The notes under the pieces: generated by a model
The model's database searches: none
What the model saw: only the letters and a program-made list of their open reading frames with translations
Told to the model about the DNA's origin: nothing
DNA from: Heterodontus francisci
Taxonomy: Eukaryota
Direction of reading: 5' to 3'
Length of the DNA: 64,000 nucleotides
Assembly: GCF_036365525.1 (NCBI RefSeq)
Contig: NC_090377.1
Coordinates: 108,334,407-108,398,406, forward strand
Shown: piece by piece, positions 1,857 to 63,800 of the stretch
How the letters are laid out: every line of letters starts with the position of its first letter
Numbering within the stretch: the first letter of the stretch is position 1
Translations under genes and position numbers: made by a program

Positions 1857-4800
1857 AATATGTTGAGGAACCAACTAGAGAACAGGCCATCCTAGACTGG
1901 GTATTGTGTAATGAGAGAGGAATAATTGACAATCCAGTTGTGTGAGACCCCTTGGGGATGAGTGACCATAATATGATTGAATTCCTCATCAAGGTGGAGA
2001 GTGACGTAGTTGATTCTGAGACTAGGGTCCTGAATCTTAATAAAGGAAACTACGAAGGTATGAGGTGCGAGTTGGCTATGATGGATTGGGAAACGTTACT
2101 TAAAGGGATGATGGTGGACAGGCAATGGCAAATAGTCAAAGAGTGCATGGATGAACTGCAACAATTGTTTATTCCTGTCTGGCGCAGAAGTAAAATGGGA
2201 AAGGTAACCAAACCTTGGCTTACAAGGGAAATTAGAGATAGCATTAGATCCAAGGTCGTGTCTCTCTAATTTGAGTTTTTTGAGGAAGTGACAAAGATGA
2301 TTGATGAAGGAAGGGCAGTGGATATTATCTATATGGATTTCAGTAAAGCCTTTCACAAGGTCCCTCATGGTAGACTAGTACAAAAGGCTCAAGTCACACG
2401 GGATCAGAGGTGAGCTGGCAAGATGGATACAGAACTGGCTCAGTGATAGAAGACAGAGGGTAGCAGTGGAAGGGTGCTTTTCTGAATGGAGGGATGTGAC
2501 TAGTGGTGTTCCGCAGGGATCAGTGCTGGGACCTTTGCTGTTTGTAGTATACATAAATGACTTGGAGGAAAATGTAGCTGGTCTGATTCGTAAGTTTGCG
2601 GACGACACAAAGGTTGGAGGAGTTGCGGATAGTGATGAGGATTGTCAGAGGATACAGCAGGATATAGATCGGTTGGAGACTTGGGCGGAGAAATGGCAGA
2701 TGGAGTTTAATCCAGACAAATGTGAGGTCATGCATTTTGGAAGGTCTAATGCATGTGGGAAGTATACAGTAAATGGCAGAACCCTTAGGAGTATTGACAG
2801 GCAGAGAGATCTGGGCGTACAGGTCCACAGGTCACTGAAAGTGGCAACACAGGTGGATAAGGTAGTCAAGAAGGTATGCGGCATGCTTGCCTTCATCGCT
2901 CGGGGCATAGAGTATAAAAATTGGCAAGTCATGCTGCAGCTGTACAGAACTTTAGTTAGGCCATACTTAGAATATTGCGTGCAATTCTGGTCGCCACACT
3001 ACCAGAAGGACATGGAGGCTTTGGAGAGGGTACAGAAGAGGTTTACCAGGATGTTGCCTGGTCTGGAGGGCATTAGCTATGAGGAGAGGTTGGATAAACT
3101 CGGATTGTTTTCACTGGAATGACGGAGGTGGAGGGGCAACATGATAGAGGTTTACAAAGTTATAAGCAGCATGGACAGAGTGGATAGTCAGAAGCTTTTT
3201 CCCAGGGTGGAAGAGTCAGTTACTAGGAGACATAGGTTTAAGGTGAGAAGGGCAAAGTTTAGAGGGGATGTGCGAGGTAAGTTCTTTACACAGAGGGTGG
3301 TGAGTGCCTGGAACTTGCTGCCGGGGGAGGTGGTGGAAGCAGGTACGATAGAGACGTTTCAGAGGCATCTTGACATATACATGAATAGGATGGGAATAGA
3401 GGGATACAGTCCCCGGAAGTGCAGAAGGTTTTGGTTTAGGCAGGCATCAAGGCTTGGAGGGCAGAATGGCCTGTCCCTGTGCTGTACTGTTCTTTGTTGT
3501 TTGTTCTTTGAAGAGGCATACAAATTTGCCAGAAAAAACAACAGACCTGAGAATTGGGAGCAGTTTAGAATTCAGCAAAGGAGGACCAAGGGATTGATTA
3601 AGAAGGGGAAAATAGAGTAAGAGAGTAAGCTTACGGGGAACATAAAAACTGATTGTAAAAGTTGCTCTCGGTATGTGAAGAAAAAAAGATTGGTGAAGAC
3701 AAATGTAGGTCCCTTACAGTCAGAAACAGGGGAATTTCTTATGGAGAACAAAGAAATGGCTGACCTATTAAATGCATACTTTGGTTCTGTCTTCACAGAG
3801 GAGGACACAAATATCATACCAGAAATGTTGGGGAACACAGGACCTAGTGAGAGAGAGGAAGTGAAGGAAATCAGTATTGTCGAGAAATGGTGTTGGGGAA
3901 ATTGATGGAATCGAAGGCCGATAAATTGCAAGGGCCTGATAATCTATGTCCCAGAGTACTTAAGGAAGTGGCCCTAGAAACAGTGGATACATTGGTGGTC
4001 ATCTTCCAAGATTCTATGGACTCTGGAACAGTTCCTACAGATTGGTGGGGAGCTAATGTAACCCCACTATTTAAAAAGTGAGGTAGAGAGAAAGCAGGGA
4101 ATTATAGACCAGTCAGCCTGACGTCGGTAGTGGGGCATATTCTGGAGTCTATTATCAAAGATTTTCTCGCAGAGCACTTGGAGAACAGTGGTAGAATCGG
4201 ATAAAGTCAGCATGGCTTTACAAAAGGGAAATCATGCTTGACAAATCTACTAGAATTCTTCGAGGATGTAACCAGTAGAGTTGATGAGGGGGAGCCAGTG
4301 GATGTGATTTACTTGGACTTTCAGAAGGCTTTCGACAAAGTCCCACATGAGAGATCAGCATGTAAAATTAAAGTGCATGGAATTGGGGGTAGTGTATTAC
4401 GATAGATAGAAAATTGGTTGGCAGACAGGAAACAAAGAGTAGGGCTAAATGGTTGCTTTTCCGAATGGCAGGCAGTGACGAGTGGGGTACCACAGGGATC
4501 GGTGCTGGGACCCCAGCTATTCACAGTATATATTAATGATTTAGATGAGGGAACTAAATGTAATATCTCCAAATTTGCAGATGACACAAAACTGGGTGGG
4601 AGGGTGAGTTGTGAGGAAGATGCAGAGAGGCTTCAGGATGATTTGGACAAGTTGAGTGAGTGGGCTAATGCATGGCAGATGCAGTATAATGTGGATAAAT
4701 GTGAGGTTATCCACTTTGGTAGCAAAAACAGGAAGGCAGATTATTATCTGACTAGCTCTAAACTGAGAGAGGGGAATATGCAACTCGACCTGGGTGTTCT

Positions 4801-5879: not shown

Positions 5880-6900
5880 GCAGAGGGGAAAGAAATGTGT
5901 CTCCTGCACGCAGAGGTAGGTACCCTCCAGAGTGGGTCTACCAGTCAAGGCTCAATTACCTGCAGATTTCAGAGAGGAAGTGCCAACGACGACTCTGCCT
6001 CTTCTGGGAGGCTATCATTGACCTATGTGCATTGATGCAGGATGAGCTGAGCCCCAGGGGACTTGGTGGAAATTCCAGTGCCAGTGGCACTGAAGCTCAC
6101 CGTGGTGCTGACCCTTCTATGCCTCTGGATCATTCCAGATTCACTGAGGACAAGTGCGGCCCATCGGTGCATCAGGGAGGTCACCATTGCCCTTTTCAGG
6201 AGGGCCGGCAAATATGTGCCCTTCCATACAGATCCAAACTCTCAAGCTGAGAGGGTAATCAGGTTTGGGGCCATTGCTGGATTCCCCCAGGTACAGGGTG
6301 TCATCAACTGCACAAATGAGGCCATCAAGGCTCCTGATCACCAGCCAGTGGCCTTCATCAACAGGAAGGGCTTCCACTCCCTCAATGTACAACTTGTCTG
6401 TGACCACCATCAGTGGATCCTGCAGATCTGTGCACGCTTCCCGGGAAGTTGCCATGATGCTGACATTTTAAGGCAGTCCCAAGTGTCAGAGGTTTTCTGG
6501 CCTTCAGGGATGGAGTCAAGAGCAACCCACTGAGGCCATGGTTACTGACACCTGTGAGGAAACCATGCACAGATGCAGAGGAGAGGTACAACTCCTGCCA
6601 CGGGACAACGCAGGCCATTGGTCTGCTGAAGATGAGAGTCATGTTCCTAGATCGGTCCGGTGGAGCCCTAATGTATGCCCCGGAAAGGCTCTCACATATT
6701 GTGATGGTCTGCTGTGGACTGCACAACCTGGTGCCGCAGAGGGGTAAAGCTCGAACAATGAGGAATGCGAGGAATGCGATGCCTCCTCAGATGATGAGGA
6801 TGCAGAGGAGGAAGCTGACCAAGCATCACCAGATGAAAGATCCGCAGGACAACGGGAGTGTTACCATGAGATATATGCAAGGCAGGCTTGCCCTTATATA
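5880..6900 (+). pseudogene. Harbinger (HARBI1-like DDE) transposase remnant
   Basis: GFPQVQGVINCT, NRKGFHSLNVQLVCD, FPGSCHDA and IGLLKMR motifs. Frameshifted, and the first catalytic Asp reads Asn. Confidence 0.85.
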
Positions 6901-7143
6901 CATTCGCGTTTCCCGTGATCTTTACTGTAGTATATTGTAATGTAGAGTTGTTACTGGGCAGAATATGTAAATAGACTGTAAGCATCTTTACAGGAAGTGA
7001 TGTAATAGAATCTGTGCAGAACCTCATAAAGCATGTAAATGGAACCCATAGTTGCAAGATGTCTGTAAATCAACTCCTGTTCCTATAACTGTCAGATTCT
7101 TAGAAATTCTGTAATAAGCTCTAATAGTTATCAGAATATGATA

Positions 7144-25057: not shown

Positions 25058-25065
25058 TATATAAA
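25058..25065 (+). promoter_or_regulatory. TATA box of the SPP2-like gene
   Basis: TATATAAA about 80 nt upstream of the signal-peptide ATG at 25140, in non-repetitive sequence. Confidence 0.7.
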
Positions 25066-25139: not shown

Positions 25140-25191
25140 ATGAAAATCATTCTCTTCATCTTTGCTGCAGTCCAGATCCTCTACTGTTCTG
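25140..25191 (+). CDS. SPP2: SPP2-like secreted cystatin-fold protein, exon 1 (signal peptide)
   Basis: ATG AAA ATC ATT CTC TTC ATC TTT GCT GCA GTC CAG ATC CTC TAC TGT TCT G encodes MKIILFIFAAVQILYCS(G), a classic signal peptide. A phase-1 GC donor (G|gcaagt) joins in frame to the ttcag|GA acceptor at 25314/25315. Confidence 0.8.
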
Positions 25192-25314
25192 GCAAGTATT
25201 GAAGTATAGAATGATTTTGTTGTATGATTTGTTGTTCTGATCATCCTGTACTAACCCAAATGTTCATTTGTCAAAAATGTATTCATCCTTAAACCACTCT
25301 GATTTTTGATTCAG

Positions 25315-25439
25315 GAGCAACATGTGGAAATTCTACCTTTTCACAGATTGAGATAGTATTAAATGCTACAATTACGAAGGTGAATGAAGATGTAGCAACT
25401 AATAACCTATTTGCTGTGACACGCTGTGAAGTAGTAAAT
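25315..25439 (+). CDS. SPP2: SPP2-like gene exon 2 (cystatin-domain N-terminal helix)
   Basis: ttcag|...|gtaagt, 125 nt, open: (G)ATCGNSTFSQIEIVLNATITKVNEDVATNNLFAVTRCEVVN. Resembles mammalian spp24 ALSASVVKVNSQSLSPYLFRA (recalled, not searched). Confidence 0.85.
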
Positions 25440-31726: not shown

Positions 31727-32975
31727 TAGAGTCATAGAGTTATACAGCACAGAAACAGGCCTATTGGCTCATCGTGTCTGTGCTGGCCATCAAGGACTTA
31801 TCTATTCTAATCCCATTTTCCAGCACTTGGCCCATAGCCTTGTATGCTATGGCATTTAAAGTGGTCATCTAAATACTTCTTAAATCTTGTGAAGGTTCCT
31901 GCCTCTACCACTCCTTCAGGCAGTGTGTTCCAGATTCCAACCACCCTCTGGGTGAAATATTTATCCTCAAGTCCCCTCTAAACCTCCTGCCCTTACCTTA
32001 AATCGATGCCCCTGGTTATTGAGCCCTCCGCTAAAGGAAAAAGTTTCTTCCTATCTATCCTATCAATGTCCCTCATAATTTTGTATACCTCAATCACGTC
32101 CCCCCTCAGCCTTCTCTGCTCCAAGGAAAACAACCATAGCCTATCCAGTGTCTCTTCATAACTGAAATGCTCCAGCCCAAGCAACATCCTGGTGAATCTC
32201 CTCTGCATCCTCTCCACTGCAATCACATCCTTCCTATGGTGTGGCGACCAGAACTGTACACAGTACTCCAGCTGTGGCCTAATTAGCATTTTATACAGCT
32301 CCATCATAACCTCCCGGCTCTTATACTCTATGCCTCGGCCAATAAAGGAAAGTATCCCGAATGCCTTCCTAACCACCTTATCTACCTGTGCTGCTGCCTT
32401 CAGTGATCTATGGACAAGCACCCCAAGGTCCCTCTGACCCTCTGTACTCCCTAGGGGTCTACCATCCATTGTATATTCCATTGCCTTGTTAGTCCTCCCA
32501 AAGTGCATCACCTCACACTTCGCAGGATTACACTCCATTTGCCACTGCTCCACCCATCTCACCAGCCCATTTATATCATTCTGTAATCTAAGGCTTTCCT
32601 CCTCACTGTGCACGACAATACCAATTTTCATGTCGTCTGCGAACCTACTGATCATACCTCCTATATTCACGTCTAAATCATTAATGTACACTACAAACAG
32701 TAAGGGTCCCAGCACCGATCCTTGCGGTACACGACTGTTCACAGGCTTCCAATCGCAAAAACAACTCTCGACCATCACCCTCTGCCTCCTGCCCTAAGCC
32801 AATTTTGAATCCAATTTGCCAAATTACCCTGGATCCCATGTACTTTTACTTTCTTAACCAATTTCCCATGTGGGACCTTATCAAAAACCTTACTGAAGTC
32901 CATATAGACCACATCGACTGCACTACCCTCATCCACACCTCGAGTCACCTCCTCGAAAAATTCAATCAAATTTGT
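31727..32975 (-). mobile_element. CR1 LINE, 5'-truncated
   Basis: 261-aa ORF with VPQGSVLGP and RFADD; atagagtcatagag tail. Confidence 0.92.
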
Positions 32976-34283: not shown

Positions 34284-34406
34284 GTTACTAATTTAGGAGA
34301 ACGTCAGTTCCGGGTGAATTTAATTATTGATGTCCAGGAAACTATGTGTCGCAAAGATTCTGGAATCGATCCGGCAAATTGTACACTGCTAACTAGCCCA
34401 GATGCT
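34284..34406 (+). CDS. SPP2: SPP2-like gene exon 3 (cystatin domain, first disulfide)
   Basis: ttggttag|...|gtgagt, 123 nt, phase 0-0: [41 protein letters not shown]. ETxCRKDSGxDPAxC matches spp24 ETTCRKDSGEDPATC. Confidence 0.9.
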
Positions 34407-42849: not shown

Positions 42850-45480
42850 GACTGATTATCTTAGAAGGTTCCTCAAATGAGGCCTTTTGGGAAGAACTTA
42901 AAAACAAAAAGGGGGCAATCACTTGGTTGGGAACCTACTACAGGCCTCCAAACAGTCTGGGAGAGATAGAGGAGCAGATATGTAGGCAAATCTCAGAGAG
43001 GTGTAAAAATAATAGGGTAATAATAGTAGGCAATTTCAACTTCCCTAATATCAACTGGGATAGTCTTAGTGCAAAAGGCTTAAATGGGGGCAGAATTCTT
43101 AAAATGCATACAGGAGAGCTTTTTGAGCCAGTACGTAGAAAGCCTTACTAGAGAAGGGGCGGTACTGGACCTAATCCTAGGGAATGAAGCCGGACAAGTG
43201 ATAGAAGTGTCAGTGGGTGAGCATTTCGGGGATAGTGACCATAACTCTGTAAGATTTAAGGCAGTTAAGGAAAAAGATGGACCAGAAATAAAGGTACTGA
43301 ATTGGGGGAAGGATGATTTCAATATGATAAAACAGGATCTGGCCAAAGTGGACGGGGAGCAGCTACTTGTAGGAAAGTCGACATCAGATCAGTGGGAGTC
43401 ATTCAAAGAGGAAATAGTGAGGGTTCAGAGCCAACATGTACCCTTTACAGTGAAGGGTAGGACCAACAGGGAACCCTGGATCTCAAGAGATATTGAGGAT
43501 TGGACCAGGAAAAATAAGGAGGCTTATGGCAGATTCAGAGCACTGAAAACAGTGGAGGAACTAGAAGAGTGTAGAAAATGTTGGGGGGGGTACTAAAAAA
43601 AGTAATTAGGAGAGCGAAGAGGGGACATGAAAAAACACTGGCAGGGAAGATAAAGGAAAATCCCAAGGCATTTAATAAGTTTATTAAGGGCAAGAGGATC
43701 ACCAGGGAAAGAGTAGGGCCCATTAGGTACCAAAGTGGCAATCTGTATGTGGAGCCGGAGGACATAGGTGAGGTTTTAAATGAATACCTTTCATCTGTCT
43801 TCACTATGGAGAAGGATGATGTCGTTGTTGAGATCAGGGACGGGGATTCTGATATACTTGAACATATTAGCATTGAAGGGGAGGAAGTATGAGCTGTTTT
43901 AGCGGGCTTAAAAGTGGATAAATCCTCAGGCCCAGATGAGATGTATCCAAGGCTGTTAAGTGAGGCAAGGGAGGAGATAGCAGGGGCTCTAGCACAAATT
44001 TTCAAATCCTCTCTGGCCACAGGAGAGGCACCAGAGGATTGGAGGACAGTGAATCTGGTACCATTATTCAAGAATGGTAGCAGGGATAAACCATGTAATT
44101 ACAGGCCAGTGAGTCTAACATCAGTGGTAGGGAAACTATTGGAAAGAATTCTGAGGGACAGGATTAATCTCCACTTGGAGAGGCAGGGATTAATCAGGGA
44201 TAGTCAGCACGGCTTTGTCAGGGGAAGATCGTGTCTAAGTAACTTGACTGAATTTTTCGAGGTGGTGGCTAGGTGTGTAGATAAGGGTCAAGCAGTTGAT
44301 GTAGTCTGCATGAACGTCAGTAAGGTTTTTGATAAGCCCCACGCGGGAGATTGGTTAAGAAGGTAAGAGCCCATGGGATCAAGGGCAATTTGGCAAATTG
44401 GATCCAAAATTGGCTTAGTGGCAGGAGGCAGAGGGTAATGGTCGAGGGTTGTTTTTGCAAGTGGAAGCCTGTGACCAGTGGTGTACCACAGGGATCGGTA
44501 CTGGGACCCTTGCTGTTTGTAGTGTATATTAATGATTTGAACCTGAATATAGGAGGTATGATTAGTAAGTTTGCAGATGACACGAAAATTGGTGGTGCTG
44601 TAAATAGTAAGTAGGAAAGCCTTAGATTACAGGACGATATAGATGGGCTGGTAAGATGGGCGGAGCAGTGGTAAATGGAATTTAATCCTGAGCAGTGTGA
44701 GGTGATGCATTTTGGGAGGACTAACAAGGTAAGGGAATATACAATGGATGGTAGAACACTAGCTAGTACAGAGGGTCAGAGGGACCTTGGTGTACTTGTC
44801 CATGGATCACTGAAGGCAGCAGCACAGGTAGATAAAATGGTTAGGAAGGCATATGGGATGCTTGTCTTTATTAGCCAAGGCATAGAATATAAAAACAGGG
44901 AGTTTATGATGGAGCTGTAGAAAACGCTAGTTAGGCTACAGCTGGAGTACTGTGTACAGTTCTGAGCACCACACTATAGGAAGGATGTGATTGTCCTGGA
45001 GAGGATGCAGAGGAGATTCACCAGGATGTTGCCAGGGCTAGAGCATTTCAGCTATGAAGAGAGACCGATATGGCTAGGGTTGTTTTCCTTGGAGCAGAGA
45101 AGGCTGAGGGGAAACCTGATTGAGGTATACAAAATTATGAGGGGCATTGATCAGTTAGATTTGAAGAAACTTCTTCCCTTAGCAGGGAAACCTGGGGGCA
45201 TAGATTTAAGGTAAGGGGCAGGAGGTTTAGAGGGGTTTTGAGGAAAAACTTTTTCACTCAGAGGGTGGTTGCAAGTGGAATGCACTGTCTGAGGTAGAGG
45301 CAGGAACCCTCACAACATTAAGAAGTATTTAGATGAGCACTTGAAATGCCGTAGCATACAAGGCTACTGGCCAAGTTCTGGAAAATGGGATTAGAATAGT
45401 TAGGTTTTTGATGGTTGGTACAGACACGATGGGCCGAAGGGCCTGTTTCTGAGCTGTATAAATCTATGACCATATGACTC
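42850..45480 (+). mobile_element. Near-complete CR1 ORF2 (decayed)
   Basis: [30 protein letters not shown] and KFADDTK; ctatgac tail. Confidence 0.93.
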
Positions 45481-46753: not shown

Positions 46754-47887
46754 GAAATTGCTACTTGCATGAGTTGGGTCATGCTTGACGGGGACATGGT
46801 CACGAGTGTTGAAATAGAATGCAGGAACATAACCTTGGGAACGACAGCACCAACATCATCGACTCCAGCACCAACATCATTGACCCCCGCACCAACATCA
46901 TCGACCCCGGCACCAACATCATCGACTCCAGCACCAACATCATCGACTCCAGCACCAACATCATCGACCCCCGCACCAACATCATCGACCCCGGCACCAA
47001 CATCATCGACTCCAGCACCAACATCATCGACTCCAGCACCAACATCATTGACCCCCGCACCAACATCATCGACCCCGGCACCAACATCATCGACTCCAGC
47101 ACCAACATCATCGACTCCAGCACCAACATCATCGACCCCCGCACCAACATCATCGACCCCGGCACCAACATCATCGACCCCGGCACCAACATCATCGACT
47201 CCAGCACCAACATCATCGACTCCAGCACCAACATCATCGACTCCAGCACTGACATCATCGACTCTAACATCATCGATAACTCCAACACAAAGATCATCGA
47301 CTCCAACATCAACATCAGCATCGTCGACTCCAGCACCGACATCATCGATAACTCCAACACTAACATTATCAACAACTGCAACACCAACATCAACACAAAC
47401 ACAAACATCAACACCAACACCAACATCAACACAAACATCAACACCAACACCAACACAAACATCAACTGCAACACCAACATCAACACAAACATCAACACCA
47501 ACACCAACATCAACTGCAACACCAACATCAACACAAACATCAACACCAACACCAACATCAACACAAACATCAACACCAACACCAACATCAACTGCAACAC
47601 CAACATCAACACAAACATCAACACCAACACCAACATCAACACAAACATCAACACCAACACCAACACCAACATCAACTGCAACACCAACATCAACTGCAAC
47701 ACCAACATCAACACAAACATCAACACCAACACCAACATCAACTGCAACACCAACATCAACACAAATGTCAACACCAACACCAACAACAAGAACAACAAAA
47801 AAGAAATTACCACCGTTGTCATCGTCATCAGAAAGCAGTGAATCATCATCAGAAAGCAACGAATCATCAGGACGATGCAGTTGGAAG
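46754..47887 (+). CDS. SPP2: SPP2-like gene exon 4: second cystatin disulfide loop, mucin-like PTS repeats and S-x-E serine cluster
   Basis: ctgtag|GAA...AAG|gtaaat, 1134 nt open in phase 0: [31 protein letters not shown]-(APTSSTP)19-...-([14 protein letters not shown])[31 protein letters not shown]. The C-x17-C loop has the spp24 spacing. Confidence 0.85.
46847..47245 (+). repeat. Coding minisatellite, 19 x 21 nt (APTSSTP) with 84-nt and 168-nt higher-order structure
   Basis: GCACCAACATCATCGAC(T/C)CC(A/C/G) units. Variants cycle every 4 units, and the TTG variant recurs at units 2 and 10. Confidence 0.95.
47375..47785 (+). repeat. Coding Thr-rich tandem repeat (mixed 24/18-nt units: [16 protein letters not shown])
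   Basis: ACACCAACATCAACACAAACATCA and ACACCAACATCAACTGCA units, all in frame. Confidence 0.9.
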
Positions 47888-48089
47888 GTAAATCATAGAT
47901 TTTAAAAAAAATTATAGCTAAATGAAGTTATGACCTTCAAAGTTCTGAAAACCCGTTTTAGTTTTAACAGTTTAAGTACGGCTGATTTTCAGTGCAAAAA
48001 ATCGTGGAAATTGCTATGTCTTATTTTATGCTGCCTCTAAATTGCACTGATTCTGTCCAACCTCTGCTGAAACTGTCTGCCACTCACTA

Positions 48090-50110: not shown

Positions 50111-50319
50111 GCTGGCACACTAACACCTGAGGCAGATTTAAACCTGTCTTTGGAAGATATGTCACTGAAGCCTAAAACTGGACAATTGCAAGTTTGACTG
50201 CAAGTTAGACCTGATTGGTTAGTAGAGGCGGGTTCTTCAGATATTCTGTTCTAGAAATCTCTGTATAAAAAACCTTGTTTTCTCTGGACTGAAGATATAA
50301 ATGATACATTTTAATTTAG

Positions 50320-50604
50320 AGATACGGCAGAAGGGGATGGTATAGGCATTGCAGGAAGAAGCATGGTTCAAGAAGAGGAGGAAGATGGTGGAGGCGTCGT
50401 TGGGGCCGAAGATGGAACAACAGACGACGATGGAATTACAACAGGTACAACATGTACAAGAGAGGAATATATGGCTTTCGTTCTGGAGGGGGATCTACAC
50501 TTACAAATCACCAAGACAGAACATACATGCGAGTTAGGAGCAGGAGTAGGCCACTCGGCCCTTCGAGCCTGCTCTGCCATTCAATTAGTTCAGGGCTAAA
50601 CTGA
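50320..50604 (+). CDS. SPP2-like gene exon 5: Arg/Trp/Gly-rich cationic C-terminal peptide (3' boundary uncertain: stop at 50602-50604 or donor after 50444)
   Basis: Acceptor ttaatttag|AGA in phase 0 matches the exon 4 donor. Open frame RYGRRGWYRHCRKKHGSRRGGRWWRRRWGRRWNNRRRWNYNRYNMYKRGIYGFRSGGGSTLTNHQDRTYMRVRSRSRPLGPSSLLCHSISSGLN*. Absent from the ORF track because it has no 5' start codon. Confidence 0.7.
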   Translation, partial: RYGRRGWYRHCRKKHGSRRGGRWWRRRWGRRWNNRRRWNYNRYNMYKRGIYGFRSGGGSTLTNHQDRTYMRVRSRSRPLGPSSLLCHSISSGLN

Positions 50605-50660
50605 TTACTCCACATTTCCACCTGCCCCCGATAACCTTTCACCCCCTTGCTTATCAGAAG
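50530..50660 (-). mobile_element. CR1 3'-tail fragment overlapping the read-through end of exon 5
   Basis: aggagcaggagtaggccactcggcccttcgagcctgctctgccattcaat...ccccgataacctttcaccccc, near-identical to 20040-20165. Confidence 0.85.
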
Positions 50661-51179
50661 GAACTGGAGAGAGTAAAATACAGATTTAGTAAATACCACC
50701 AGAGATTATTTGTCACATTTTATTTTTGTCTCATTTCTGTGGTCACTGTATACATAACATTAAAACTGGTCTGCAATGATATTTATCCCCACACGAGCAA
50801 TATCCCAATCCCAGGTGCTTGCCCAGTTCCCATATCCCTTTATCCCCCTTTCATTCAACCTCCTATTTAACCTACTAACTTATCTTTAAGCTTTGACATG
50901 GTCTATTGTGTGGTTTTGTTGGCAGTAACATTTTGGGTTTGGTTTTTCTATTATTTTGATCTTGTATATCTCTCTACGGTCACCTCTCATATGCTGCCTT
51001 TCAAAGCTGAAAAACACAAAGTCTTTCTTTATAACTCAGTTCTCTGACACCACAGATCAGACTCACTTTCTGAACTGCCTCCAGGATTTTAATGTTTCTC
51101 TTTTGCCTCTCACCAGAAATGGTCACAGTACTCAAAGTGTGGTCTATCGAGAGCACAATAAGCATGAATTCGTCTACCT

Positions 51180-51920
51180 GTTTTTTTCATTCGTTCATGG
51201 GATGTGGGCAGCACTGGCAAGGCGAGCAGTTATTGCCCATCCCTAATTCCGCTTGTGAAGTTAGTGGTATGTCACCTTCTTGAACCGCTGGAGTCCACGT
51301 GGTGTAGGTACATGCACAGTGCTGTTAGGGAGGGAGTTCTAGATATTGACTCAGTCACAGTGAAGGAATGGTGATATATATCCATGTCAGTATGGTCTCT
51401 AACTCGGAGGCAACTTGCAGGTGGTGGTGTTCCCACAGACCAACTGCCCTTATTTGTCCAGGTCTTTAAGGTCATGTGTTTGGAAGATGCTGTAGAAGGA
51501 GGCTCGGTGAGTTGCTGCAGTGCATCTTGTAGATGGTACACACTGCTGCCACTGTGTGCTGATGGCGGAGAACATGAATGTTTAATGTGGTGGATGGGGT
51601 GACAATCAAGTGGGCTGCTTTGACCTGACTGGTGTAGCGCTTCTTCAGTATTGTTGGAGCTGCATTCATCCAGGCAAGTAGAGAGTATTCCTTCACACTC
51701 CTGACTTATACCTTGAAAGTGGTGGAAAGGCTTTGGGGAGTCAGGAACTGGGTTACTGGCTGCATAATTCCCAGCCTCAAATCTGCTCTTGTAACCACAG
51801 TATTTATGTGCTGGTCCAGTTAAGTTTGCGGTCAATGGTGACCCATAGGTTGGAGGTGGTGGGGAATTCTGCCATGGTAATATTGTTGAATATCAAGTGG
51901 AAATGTTTAGATTCTCTCGA
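51180..51920 (-). mobile_element. Non-LTR LINE 3' fragment (same family as 35710-36330)
   Basis: VTIDRKLNW and MKEYSLLAWMNAAPTILKK, with the reverse-complement tail. Confidence 0.78.
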
Positions 51921-51929
51921 TGGCACAAA

Positions 51930-52695
51930 ACCAAGTAAAGAAACAAAAGATGTGTCTGGGTGAAGTGCAAATGACAGGACAACAACTGCCAAATGCAAAG
52001 TAAAGGGATTAAGATAGAAATGGTGGGAGGAAAACAAAAAAAACCCCAAAAAAACAAACATCCTTTAGATGCTCGGTGCAATCTGGTGACAAATTGTGCA
52101 AGTTTCCCCATCTGTCTGCTTCATTTGTTGGAAAACATGCCACTGAAATGTTGCATTCATCTTCACCACACAATTGTTTAATGCATCCATGGCCTTGTCA
52201 TAATCATCCCATTCTCCTGTGTCATTAAGTGTTTTAAATGTCTCCCTCACTGATGCCCGAGCATTGTAGAGCAACAAAGCTTTCTGTTGTGCTCTCTGCG
52301 CCAACCTCGCCCCATCGTGAAACAGGCCCCTGTTGTCCGCATAATCGTCAAACTCCTCCATCCATGTGCCCCATCGCACACTTACTACACTGGCATCACC
52401 ATTGGGATCAAACTGATTTACACCTCTATTCCCAGCAGATTCTAGTCCACCAAAAGCCATACCTAACTGCAACCTAATTCAATATTTTAGTCCGCGTTGC
52501 CATTGTTGGATCCTCCAATAATGATACTTTATAAAACTGAGGCGTAACTTGATTCACAGACATTATTCAGCGATCTTTGCTCTCCAGATACTGTCCTTTA
52601 ACATGTGCTATCTGACCTTTAACATCTGGGCCTGATGACCTCCTAACTAGTACAGAAAGCACTGCACAGTATCTAATATTCAAGTCGACATAACA
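51930..52695 (-). mobile_element. Gypsy LTR-element remnant (LTR about 52504-52695, PBS, gag fragment)
   Basis: Gag-like FDPNGD...RWGTWMEEF...QKALLLY...DDYDKAMDALN...FQQMKQTDGET; PBS-like TGGCAACGCGGAC on the - strand at about 52490-52502. Confidence 0.7.
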
Positions 52696-52904
52696 CTGAG
52701 TTATCATCATGACAGACACTTCCAGAATTAAACAATTAACTCAATGGTGTCACCATAAATACCCCAAGGTAAGTACACATCTTTTCCAACAACAGCCACT
52801 TTCTACACATGTATGCAAGACAAAGACACTTTGATTTTACCGAGAAGAGATTTTTCAGCTCACTCACTAACTGAATATTGATCACCAAAAACTTCTTAGA
52901 AATT

Positions 52905-53345
52905 TTCTTTGGCCTCCTTCGCTCGAGAGACAATGGGTAAGCGCCTGGAGGTGGTCAGTGGTGTGTGGAGCAGTGCCTGGAGTGGCTATAAAGGCCAATT
53001 GTAGAGTGACAGGCTATTCCACAGGTGCTGCAAAAAAATTTGTTTGTCGGGGCTGTTACACAGTTGGCTCTCCCCTTGCGCTTCTGCCTTTTTTCCTGCC
53101 AACTGCTAAGTCTCTTCGACTCGCCACACTTTAGCCCCGCCTTTATGGCTGCCCGCCAGCGCTGGCGAATGCTGGCAACTGACTCCTACGACTTGTGATC
53201 AATGTCACAGGACTTCATATCGCGTTTGCAGACGTCTTTGAAGCGGAGACATGGACGGCCGGTGGGTCTGATACCAGTGGCGAGCTCACTGTACAATGTG
53301 TCTTTGGGGATCCTGCCATCTTCCATGCGGCTCACATGGCCATGG
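52905..53345 (-). mobile_element. RTE-clade LINE 3' fragment
   Basis: Minus-strand translation GHVSRMEDGRIPKDTLYSELATGIRPTGRPCLRFKDVCKRDMK. Confidence 0.85.
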
Positions 53346-53411
53346 TTATCTAGTATTCAGATAAAACTACTGCAGATTCTCAATGAATTAATTTTGCTGA
53401 TTTAATTACAG

Positions 53412-53970
53412 AGTTTAAGAAAACTGAAGAGTGGATGGAGATAACAAGCAAACGTGAAAAACAGGGAGAAAATTCCAGATGGCTTAAAGAGTTTAATTTT
53501 AAAACATTATGTTTCACACTTAGTTAGAAGTAGGTTACAGTTTAATTGTTAGTATGTTAGAATATAGTTTATTACACTGGTGTTCTTGATATCATTACTA
53601 CTCAGAAATATGCCAATTAACTAAATCATGTGATATATTCCATACCAGATGTCAATGTGAAATCAGACAATAAACAGAATATTAATAATTGTATCACTGT
53701 GGCTCTTTCACTTTTGTAAAACAATATGAGAGGAACTCATATTATTGTATCTATTGCCTTATACGGTAAAACTGTTCACAATCTGACTTCTTAACTGCTT
53801 TGTCCTGTTCTAATTAAACTCTAATTACCACAACCATTTTGGTTAGGCTGGCTCTGAATGTCTTACAAGGCCATTAATCAAATACACTACAAGTAAAAGA
53901 TCAGAGGCGCAGAAAGTCAAATCGGCAGAAAAACAGCATGAAAACAATAAACTCTTCATTAACTCCTGAT
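53412..53970 (+). other. Candidate terminal / 3'UTR exon of the SPP2-like gene
   Basis: Acceptor ttttgctgatttaattacag| at 53411, followed by AT-rich unique sequence with AATAAA at 53669 and 53946. Reads A-GTT-TAA in phase 2 (fits the AACAG|gtacaa donor at 50444) or SLRKLKSGWR* in phase 0. Confidence 0.4.
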
Positions 53971-60813: not shown

Positions 60814-63800
60814 CAGCCAGAGTTTTGTCAGCACTTTGAAGACGGCCTGGGATGCAGGAGGGGTGGGTAAAATGGCAGGGAAAGATGTCGGGAGGGAAGC
60901 TCGATGTGTTTATGTTGTGAACTGATATTGCTAAAGACAGCCGGGCTGGCGGGAGAAAGTAATGCTGGAGTGCAGTGAGAAGGTAATTAAGCCTGTTGCA
61001 TAGGCAATGAACTGTGACTTACCAAGTTTTTTTCCATTTTACGAGGGCTGCATGAAACAACGGGGCTTCAGAGCCTTCCCAGCTATTACGAGGTGGAAGC
61101 TCGTCAGAATGCCAGTGTTGGCTGCAGTCAGCAGCCATTGCGAGAGGTAGCATGGCTTGGTAGGGTCGGTGATACTGAGTAGACAGAGGCAGAAGCTATC
61201 GGGAGCAAAGACAAACTTGACTGCCACAGCAGTGGCATTCTGATTGGGTGTCCTTTCTGACTTGGCACTTGTATGTACAGAGCAAGGATTGGCAGCAGGC
61301 CCAGAGAACTGAGTGCAACTATTTGCAATGGGCCTCATTCACACAGGCTTTGAGGTCTCCAGTGAGGAAGAGCATCAGAGAGGGAGAGAGCTGCAGCCAC
61401 CGGGAGTGGAGCTGCTGCACCTAGAGGGGCTACAGCACCTGGAGGGGCTACAGCACCCAGAGTGGCAGCAGGATCAGGAGCCTAGTAGGGGGCACAGACA
61501 AGGAGGGCGCAGAGGGGCACACAACCAGCCTCTGGTGCACCGAAGATGCTAACCACCAGAGAGATTCTATGGTCAGAGGTTTAGCTTCCTGCAAATGCCG
61601 GAGCAGCAGTGTCGCTGAAGACTGGGTCTCTCCAGGGAGGCCATCATCGAGCTGTACACCATGGTGGAGGAGGAGCTGAGCCCTATGGGAAGGGGCAGGC
61701 ACCCAATGTCTGTTGCATTGAAGGTCACAGTGGCGCTGACTTTCTATGCCTCATGATCCTCTGGAGATATCTGTGGAATATCCCAGTCTGTGGCTTCTCA
61801 CTCCATCGAAATGGTCACCAATGCTATGTCTAAGAGGACCAGCCAATACATGTCCTTTCGCACCAAACCAAAGAGTCAAGCTGAGAGGACTATAGGATTC
61901 GGGGCCATTGCTGGATTCCCCCAAGTACAGGGTGTCATTGACTGCATGCATGTGGCCATCAAGGCTCCAACGAGTCAGGGAGCAGCTTTCATCAACAGGA
62001 AGGACTTCCGTTGACTCATTGTACAACTGGTCGCTGACTACCACAAACGGATCTTTCAGGTCTGTGCAACATTCCTGGGAAGCTGCCACAAAACCTAAGA
62101 ACTAAGGCAGTTCCAGGTGCCCGAAATTTTCAGGCCCCCCCACACACCTTCAAGGATGGATACTAGGAGACAAGGGCTACCCACTGAAGAGATGGTTATT
62201 TAAGCCTGTGAGGAATCCAAGCACTGATGCACAAGTCATATACAACAGCTGCCATGGGACAACTCGAGCCACCATCAAGCAGGCCGTATGGCTTCTGTAG
62301 ATGTGGTTCCAATGCCTGGAAAGATCTGGTGGAACCCTTCAATATCCCCAACAAGGATTTTGCGTATTGTGGTGGTGTGCTATACTCGGCACAACATGGT
62401 GCTACAGAAGGGAGAAGCTTTGAACGATGAGGAAATCCTTTTTTAAAATTCTTTCATGGGATGTGAGCATCCCTGGCAAGGTCAGCATTTCTTGCCCTTC
62501 CTTAATTGCCCTTGAGAAGGTGATGATGAGCCTCCTTCTTGAACCGATGTGATCCTGCAGTGTGATGCCTCCTCCCAATGATGAGGATACAGAGGGAGAC
62601 GGTGGCCAGGTGCAATATAATGAAGACCCTGAGGAACAGCAGGCAAAGTGCAATGAGATATGTGCTAGGGAGGCTAGCGACTCACTAATACAGACACGTT
62701 TCTCATGAACCTCCCTTATACACCCATTCAGTCAAATAAATCTTTCACCTTCTGCAGTCCTGCTACTGTTTCCTTGAATGCCCTTACCAGCTAAATAACC
62801 CGTCATCACATCAGGCCATGGCATGGGAAATGTATTGACCTCATTTGTCCTTCACATCATACCTTGTGCAGAAACCAGAGAACTGTTAATGGCCCTTAGT
62901 GTATAAAAAGGTAAAGGATGCTTTTCGTGGTGCACCATTTCAGAATTCATTGATGACACATACTCAGCAAGGTGAAACCTAATGATATAATATAATCCCA
63001 TGAAACCCAAGTGCAGCTAGATGGACTTGCAGGTGCTCCTATGTGGTGCTCCCCCTGCGCTGTCATCTGAGGTGGAGGCAGGCTGCTGACCTTTCTGCTC
63101 CATGGCTTTCAATGGCCGTAGCCGTTGACCTTTGGTTGCCTAAGGACTGAAGGACCTCCTGCACAGGTGCAGGAGTCACCTCTGTCTCCATGGCTTCATG
63201 AGGTGCTGGTGTCACCGTCAGAGGGGACAAGAACCAGCTGTACACACCAGGAGCACCCTGTGAGAAGCCCCCAGAAGCTGCTCCTCCACCCTTTCAGGGC
63301 ACACTTGTCCCTACCCACTCACCTGAGGAATCTGAGGACCTGGCGATGTCTCCCGGCATCTTGTCTCCCTCTTGCCCAACCATTGTTCCACAAAGCTCAT
63401 GGAGAAGATGATGGCCTGCAGGTCCATGTGCATCTCTGGTATATACCGGGTGGTTTGCTGGATGGGGCTTTCCAAGAAGGTCGCCAATCTCTCAACGGAG
63501 GAAGCTATGCACGCACATGCCAGAGTGATGGCTGCACCCATGGCCTGGATAGATTCCTCCATCATCTGTGCATGGATGTGCATAGCCTCTGGAAGCTCTG
63601 CCAGATGTTCATGCGCTTTATGCTGGATCTGCAGCATCTGCCATCTAGTTGTTGACTCCAACCTGAAGCTGAGTATCGCCAGGCCCTTCCACAGTCCTCC
63701 GAATGTGTGTGCACTCAACTGTCACTGCCTCCATCAGTTGCTTGGCACGTCTGTGCTGTGCTCACCGGATTGTTACCTTGTTACTACTCGCGCACGACTG

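Follow-up and report, generated by a model that had tools for sequence, protein, structure and literature searches.

An extremely cationic Arg/Trp-rich terminal region in an SPP2-family gene of Heterodontus francisci and its possible functions

According to the text of PMC13188829 (2026), SPP2 proteins consist of a cystatin domain, a Ser-rich region and an Arg-rich C-terminus, and this Arg-rich end is ancient, being present in lamprey and sarcopterygians. In mammalian Spp24, the Arg-rich C-terminus is reported to be proteolysed, and truncation cuts the affinity for TGF-beta/BMP by 1-2 orders (PMC3753320, in the part available). Mammalian Spp2 belongs to calciprotein particles (PMC13188829). 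The same paper defines an elasmobranch spp2.Like clade, which its authors exclude from the common BMP/calcium-phosphate function, and its table gives 14 spp2 genes for Heterodontus francisci. Catshark spp2.L2 carries PTST repeats that separate its domain from its Ser block, in addition to an Arg-rich end, and it is expressed in denticles (77.7 TPM), dental lamina (63.1), spiral intestine (9.2) and Meckel's (7.6), with values of 1.8 in gills, 2.3 in spleen, 2.2 in blood and 2.3 in liver (PMC13188829). Transcript levels of catshark spp2.L1-3 approach background in gills, oesophagus, stomach, spleen and blood; in situ hybridisation failed to localise spp2.Like, and its function is termed difficult to apprehend (PMC13188829). 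In catshark tooth RNA-seq, spp24 of unspecified paralogy falls into a late-tooth cluster with mmp20, bmp3 and bmp7 (bioRxiv 10.1101/2025.08.26.672487, in the text available).

Spp24 and cathelicidins are described as separate cystatin-derived families, the latter being vertebrate-wide (PMC2784779, in the part available). Very few shark antimicrobial peptides are named in the available text of a review (PMC6795676), the words 'antimicrobial' and 'cathelicidin' occur 0 times in the text of PMC13188829, and a literature search, with subscription papers outside its reach, turned up no publication that gives SPP2 tails an antimicrobial role.

The locus described here lies in a window (the whole analysed stretch of 64,000 nucleotides, C7 108.33-108.40 Mb) of Heterodontus francisci, in which a sequence-only reading had flagged an Arg/Trp-rich stretch as a candidate novel antimicrobial peptide. 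Rather than standing alone, this peptide forms the Arg-rich C-terminal end of a protein of the SPP2 family, for which such an end is on record (PMC13188829). Six exons (Table 1), the upstream ones located by motif scans, join to an open reading frame for a protein of 521 aa, which comprises a signal peptide, assigned by its match to homolog N-termini, an Spp-24 cystatin domain (PF07448), a Thr/Pro mucin stalk, a Ser-x-Glu cluster at residues 456-473 and the Arg/Trp tail. Eight Cys follow the signal peptide, with C81, C92, C105 and C123 in the Spp-24 domain. The Ser-x-Glu cluster adjoining the tail, as proposed earlier, exists, and its phosphorylation is predicted from the motifs. Intron 1 is a GC-AG intron with its GC donor at 25191-25193, and the hexamers AATAAA and ATTAAA occur at 53669 and 53813. 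Repeat fragments occur throughout the window, e.g. at 2379-3620, 31993-32793, 43084-45214, 6051-6940 and 61750-62100, which from their translations are taken to be of CR1-type LINE (reverse transcriptase) and Harbinger-like (transposase) origin.

Table 1. Positions in the window of the exons and associated features of the SPP2-family gene
Feature	Position	Strand	Basis
TATA-like box upstream of exon 1	25060..25065	+	sequence; putative function
Exon 1 coding part, signal peptide, non-canonical GC donor, phase 1	25140..25191	+	13/16 residues identical to N-terminus of homolog P0071
Exon 2	25315..25439	+	8 matches in own genome
Exon 3 (123 nt), Spp-24 cystatin-like domain	34284..34406	+	PF07448 E=7.1e-7, 29.8 bits, cut-off 26; 74% identical to P0001
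Exon 4 start, last cystatin hairpin C105-x17-C123	46754..46822	+	19-residue Cys-bounded spacing as in TRH1/BMP-binding loop of Spp24; putative binding by analogy
Exon 4, mucin-like Thr/Ser/Pro repeat stalk, ~320 aa	46838..47794	+	sequence
Exon 4, Ser-rich cluster, 12 Ser + 4 Glu in 18 aa, 4 S-x-E motifs	47819..47872	+	putative Fam20C sites; predicted phosphorylation
Exon 4 end, first tail Cys C475, GT donor at 47888, phase 0	47873..47887	+	sequence
Exon 5 (125 nt), Arg/Trp-rich tail and second tail Cys C489	50320..50444	+	RNA contig X1 record 1, 0 mismatches, spliced to exon 6; homologous tails in rays, saw shark
Repeat insertion in intron 5, 138 nt	50517..50654	+	alignment; very high repeat cover; 5-nt flanking duplication
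Exon 6, rest of split Arg codon, Val, stop (53416-53418), 3' UTR	53412..53787	+	RNA contig; sequence

Translation of 50320-50445 reproduces the earlier residue counts of 17 Arg, 2 Lys, 6 Trp and no Asp or Glu. The resulting 42-mer has a net charge of +19; of the 23,058 segments of 42 residues without a stop, taken over all six frames of the 64-kb window, none is more cationic, and the next value elsewhere in the stretch is +14. An AG at 50318-19 precedes exon 5 and a GT follows it at 50445-46; its true end is 50444 rather than 50445, as the final Arg codon is divided by the intron; a Val after this split Arg and the stop codon are both encoded by exon 6. That an internal exon of 125 nt escapes an ORF caller is expected. 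The whole tail, i.e. the last 48 residues, contains 18 Arg and 7 Trp (net +21), a single aliphatic residue, an otherwise Arg/aromatic composition, and Cys 475 and 489 in a C-x13-C spacing. Several R-x-x-R motifs had been noted in the tail, and five are counted. A motif scan found no full furin site (R-x-K/R-R) and none of the consensus heparin-binding patterns XBBXBX and XBBBXXBX in it, and its best 11-mer helical moment, equalled by 83 of 2000 shuffles, is marginal. Pfam searches with the mucin ORF, both frames of exon 5 and the 42-mer gave nothing above cut-off, a weak match to Rota_NS35_C (E=0.016) being put down to composition, and an ESM Atlas search with the tail returned no usable match.

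Transcription of the exon is documented by a 652-nt contig from run X1, a run taken as RNA by guess, which matches 50318-50440 and then 53408-53787 with 0 mismatches. Since four letters fit on either side, the contig defines a GT-AG intron at 50445-53411, and the record is thus spliced. The flagged stretch is therefore, as had been suspected, a transcribed exon spliced in the Arg frame from 50444 to 53412, which rules out a longer terminal exon reading to 50604. The contig equals the window copy exactly, and three other close copies differ from it in exon 5 at 1, 1 and 3 sites. On the other side, the fit begins at 50318, as expected if the final AG of exon 4 abuts 50320; 149 contig letters remain upstream of the fit, and one X1 contig crosses the left end of the compared stretch within exon 4. 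Exon 4 thus appears to join exon 5 at 50320. If this is the case (donor after 47887, phase 0), both the Cys pair and the junctional Lys-Arg that had been pointed out earlier are present in the protein. Among the matches listed, runs X2, X4 and X6 had no piece over exon 5; the depth there was 1.1 in X6 vs 90.5 in X1, both from one sample, and contigs cannot rank expression. Small shares in the run search stemmed mostly from a repeat within the query. In run X4, a contig that belongs to another organism matches part of the 3' UTR (53600-53761) at >=85%, which suggests a conserved UTR segment, and exon 6/UTR is recognisable at 13 family loci.

A reading of exon 5 in the acidic +1 frame (MVQEEEEDGG...), an alternative named earlier as a refutation, is very improbable, and so is a tail that merely drifts without a function. 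All of exons 2-4 end in phase 0, no AG stands directly before 50321, and the acidic frame thus has no phase-0 entry; the alternative AG at 50320-21 leads to a stop after 7 codons and would let the contig fit begin at 50320, whereas the contig agrees with the 50320 acceptor, and 13 annotated homologs from nine genera use the Arg frame, five of them aligning above all 500 shuffles. The points on the other side are that gene model P0056 (Chiloscyllium punctatum, hypothetical) uses the acidic frame for the orthologous exon (score 99), that this frame is open in the window copy and in the C9 paralog, that changes among three close copies are silent in 3/5 cases in the acidic frame vs 1/4 in the Arg frame, and that dN/dS against the C9 paralog does not distinguish the frames. 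However, the P0056 model appears broken in exon 4 as well, and a stop in the +1 frame would require codons with T in the middle position (F/L/I/M/V), which exon 5 lacks.

Exon 3 matches PF07448 above cut-off, as do 13 of 15 aligned homologs, and no window exon matches cathelin (PF00666) by Pfam; paralog P0001 scores 20.1 with PF00666 (cut-off 21) vs 42 with Spp-24. In an AlphaFold model of this paralog (pLDDT 74), on which the fold comparison rests, cystatin folds match best and cathelin domains lower (E=0.018). A midpoint-rooted tree of 47 cystatin-domain rows and 127 columns, which leaves out 23 of the 69 collected proteins, places the gene in a clade of 15 rows (support 99/99) together with P0006, the catshark Spp2L3 (Table S14, PMC13188829), and apart from spp2.1/2.2/2.3 and bony-fish spp2. 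Exons of vps8 are found at C7:109.52 Mb, ~1.1 Mb from the window, and an spp2.1-like exon at 110.08 Mb. The grouping with catshark spp2.L3 and the proximity of vps8 assign the gene to the spp2.Like clade. As named H. francisci proteins match paralog exons, the gene may already be annotated and included in the tree of PMC13188829, and this protein and its Cys pair may perhaps already be displayed in Figure 9 or the alignments of that paper.

A search of 50%-identity representatives with P0001 yielded 68 proteins. A cationic tail (a 40-residue window of net >=+15) is present in 13 of 27 clade homologs, isoforms counted, from sharks and rays of nine genera (Hemitrygon, Mobula, Pristis, Leucoraja, Pristiophorus, Heptranchias, Heterodontus, Cetorhinus and Rhincodon). 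The remaining 14 reach net +6 at most, several of them being truncated models or isoforms, and the best 40-mer of 46 SPP2 proteins outside the clade has at most +14. When aligned to the window tail, 5 of 11 homolog tails beat all 500 shuffles. The Cys loop that had been suggested for this tail is often conserved: a C-x7-11-C pair opens 7 of the 13 cationic tails, while one has a wider pair, two a single Cys and three none. The Trp richness on which the antimicrobial proposal was built is not conserved, as homolog tails contain 0 to 5 Trp vs 7 here, with at least 4 in 3/13 and none in Leucoraja. Charge is kept while Trp varies, and tail length and aromatic content vary widely. P0001, P0003 and P0006 (spp2.L3 type; L019/L071 on C14) have a hydrophobic helix after the stalk and no Ser block or Arg tail; this ending is either a membrane-anchored variant or intron read-through.

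In its own genome, the gene has at least six close copies of exons 2-3 and four of exon 5 within 0.6 Mb on C7, and more distant family copies on C7, C9 and C14. The C9 copy retains the Arg frame and both Cys, and own-genome searches did not find exons 1-3 of this paralog. Between the window and copy D, 3 of 125 sites of exon 5 differ (2.4%), compared to 139 of 1549 in the flank (9.0%; Fisher p=0.007), and dN is below dS (0.29 < 0.45) against the C9 paralog. The diversifying selection for which a test had been suggested is thus contradicted in exon 5 by a conservation beyond the flanks among recent copies, which would reflect purifying selection or gene conversion. Positive selection on the cystatin exons as a general claim (29 non-silent vs 2 silent changes against copy D, p=0.014) was rejected, because silent sites in exons 2-3 are abnormally conserved (0/58 vs 140/1288 in the flanks, p=0.003), a pattern indicative of gene conversion or constraint. 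Against copy D, exon 4a is the one segment that diverges more than its own flank (24% vs 14%, p=0.056); this difference, non-significant alone, could possibly indicate a change in ligand binding. Over the piece with the C-x17-C loop (46754-46840), the 24% divergence from copy D comprises 19 non-silent and 2 silent changes, with 2-6% in the other exons.

The 138-nt repeat in intron 5 is missing from the D and C9 copies and was inserted before a second donor-like site at 50673, up to which the sequence just within intron 5 is similar to the coding tail of other family members such as P0004. In exon 6, a 2-nt deletion moves the stop forward; paralogs enter this exon in phase 2, reading K-T-E-E. 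From these comparisons, this lineage seems to have cut back a longer ancestral tail to its most Arg/Trp-dense part. A ~260-kb block containing the window is duplicated nearly perfectly at C7 108.10-108.46 Mb (L006/L008/L044 vs the window, L009), with a single mismatch, which changes Arg to Gly, over the 3201 bases around exon 5; either the tandem duplication is very recent or one haplotype entered the assembly twice. In two neighbouring copies (L029, L031, L037, L039; C7:108.198 and 108.449 Mb), exon 4 is inverted relative to exons 2, 3 and 6, and searches detected no counterpart of exon 5; these copies are probably rearranged pseudogenes.

The best explanation, held with modest confidence and by analogy, is that the tail is the basic C-terminal region of a tooth/denticle matrix protein, which would bind polyanions and mineral, boost growth-factor affinity and be trimmed by proteases. 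This is suggested by the PF07448 domain, the clade, the expression of catshark members in denticles and teeth, the proteolysis of the Spp24 tail, the conservation of charge while Trp varies, and the conservation of exon 5. By analogy with catshark spp2.L expression, the protein would be secreted by odontode epithelium, with its Ser-x-Glu cluster phosphorylated by Fam20C and its stalk O-glycosylated. The phosphoserine block (about -12 to -28 at most) and the +21 tail would then form an acid/base pair with the disulfide loop at their border, which could bind apatite, sulfated glycans and acidic matrix proteins and increase the affinity for BMP/TGF-beta captured by the cystatin domain. Matrix proteases might switch these bindings off by cutting the tail at basic residues, comparable to the conversion of Spp24 to Spp18/16/14.5. 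Protease release of the peptide, as proposed earlier, is plausible in so far as the Arg-rich C-terminus of mammalian Spp24 is reported to be cleaved (PMC3753320), and an antimicrobial action of released fragments, if any, would be a side or second function. Counted against a matrix protein are the tail charge well above that of the 46 SPP2 proteins outside the clade, the 14/27 clade homologs that show no such tail, several of them truncated models or isoforms, the tail's lack of a consensus heparin-binding pattern, and, from PMC13188829, the failed in situ localisation of spp2.Like and its exclusion from the common BMP/calcium-phosphate function. Denticles and dental lamina are exposed epithelia, too, so that expression there fits defence as well.

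A possible but unlikely alternative is a cathelicidin-like precursor, in which a cystatin-fold prodomain and a mucin stalk carry a phosphoserine-masked Arg/Trp peptide that would be released at the junctional dibasic site or at R-x-x-R sites and protect erupting teeth and denticles. Arg/Trp peptides are membrane-active, and the charge and Trp content of the 48-residue tail as well as its marginal helical moment can be counted in favour of this function. Further points in its favour are PF00666 matches at E<=0.01 in 3 of 15 homologs (best 1.1e-6), the cathelin domains among the fold matches of the P0001 model, the Cys loop in 7/13 cationic tails, the recent expansion of exons 2-3 and exon 5 on C7 with one exon 5 copy on C9, and the surface epithelia that express catshark spp2.L. 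The layout parallels that of cathelicidins, which belong to the same cystatin superfamily (PMC2784779). Against a defence peptide stand the near-background expression of catshark spp2.L1-3 in gills, oesophagus, stomach, spleen and blood, the variable Trp content, a tail without an R-x-K/R-R site, the below-flank divergence of exon 5, and the ancient Arg-rich end of the family with a non-immune role on record. Shark plasma, which had been suggested as a source for peptidomics, would be the wrong place, given that in catshark the transcripts of this family occur in denticles and dental lamina but hardly rise above background in blood, liver, spleen and gills. A Trp-rich peptide of +19 to +21 may kill bacteria in low-salt assays regardless of its natural role.

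The same caution applies to the evolutionary form of this proposal: it is conceivable, though doubtful, that in sharks and rays an SPP2 duplicate with a role in mineral regulation evolved convergently into a cathelicidin-like precursor of a mucin-tethered, phosphoserine-masked, disulfide-looped Arg(/Trp) peptide. If true, a new elasmobranch-wide antimicrobial peptide family would reside inside a biomineral gene and sterilise continuously erupting teeth and skin denticles. A positive result would reveal a second independent defence design of cystatin plus cationic peptide and a natural Arg/Trp template, and a negative one an ordinary lineage-specific member of a described family. As the tail is short, synthesisable and naturally delimited, mineral binding and antimicrobial activity can be compared side by side.

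More improbable still is that the tail serves mainly for self-assembly: its Arg/Trp/Tyr/Gly block and the phosphoserine block would make the protein coacervate or aggregate, giving calcium-phosphate carrier particles or a pre-enameloid matrix, and no peptide would be released. Arg/aromatic and opposite-charge compositions are linked to coacervation, and the protein has neighbouring blocks of opposite charge, with Arg/aromatic residues and one aliphatic residue in the tail; the widely variable length and aromatic content of homolog tails argue against this role. The occurrence of mammalian Spp2 in calciprotein particles (PMC13188829) would fit it. Self-assembly and a matrix-protein tail are compatible.

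Compared with known systems, the closest is catshark spp2.L2 (XM_038790278.1), with which the window gene shares the signal peptide, the cystatin-like domain, the Pro/Thr/Ser repeat insert, the S-x-E block and the Arg-rich C-terminus, and the spp2.Like clade as a whole shares the locus near vps8 and lineage-specific duplications. The likeness to spp2.L2 is drawn from its published description, homology being established at clade level and not one-to-one. In the window gene, the stalk is longer, and an internal donor together with an early stop leaves a tail of 48 residues, 7 of them Trp. The available text of PMC13188829 discusses neither the Cys loop nor a defence role. Thus, the family and the tail type are known, whereas this extreme member, the defence hypothesis and, judging by the text available, the conservation of the Cys loop are new.

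Mammalian SPP2/Spp24 (PF07448) has in common the four-Cys cystatin domain, the 19-residue TRH1-like loop, the Ser-rich block and the Arg-rich end, the domain identity of bony-vertebrate SPP2 to the window gene being 25-38%. In contrast to mammalian SPP2, the window gene has extra Cys pairs (C21/C55 and C475/C489), a mucin stalk and a much higher tail charge, and the catshark family members are not liver-expressed. Cathelicidins (PF00666) likewise combine a prodomain of the cystatin superfamily with a cationic C-terminal exon; however, the window domain is Spp-24 by Pfam and by tree, not cathelin. Cathelicidin genes have four exons and encode the peptide directly after the cathelin domain, whereas the window gene has six exons and ~350 residues of stalk and Ser block separate its domain from the candidate peptide. 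With indolicidin, tritrpticin and lactoferricin, the tail shares the Arg and Trp composition and, as in lactoferricin, a disulfide loop, but it is longer, more charged, Gly/Asn-rich and almost free of aliphatic residues, and it shows no homology to these peptides by Pfam.
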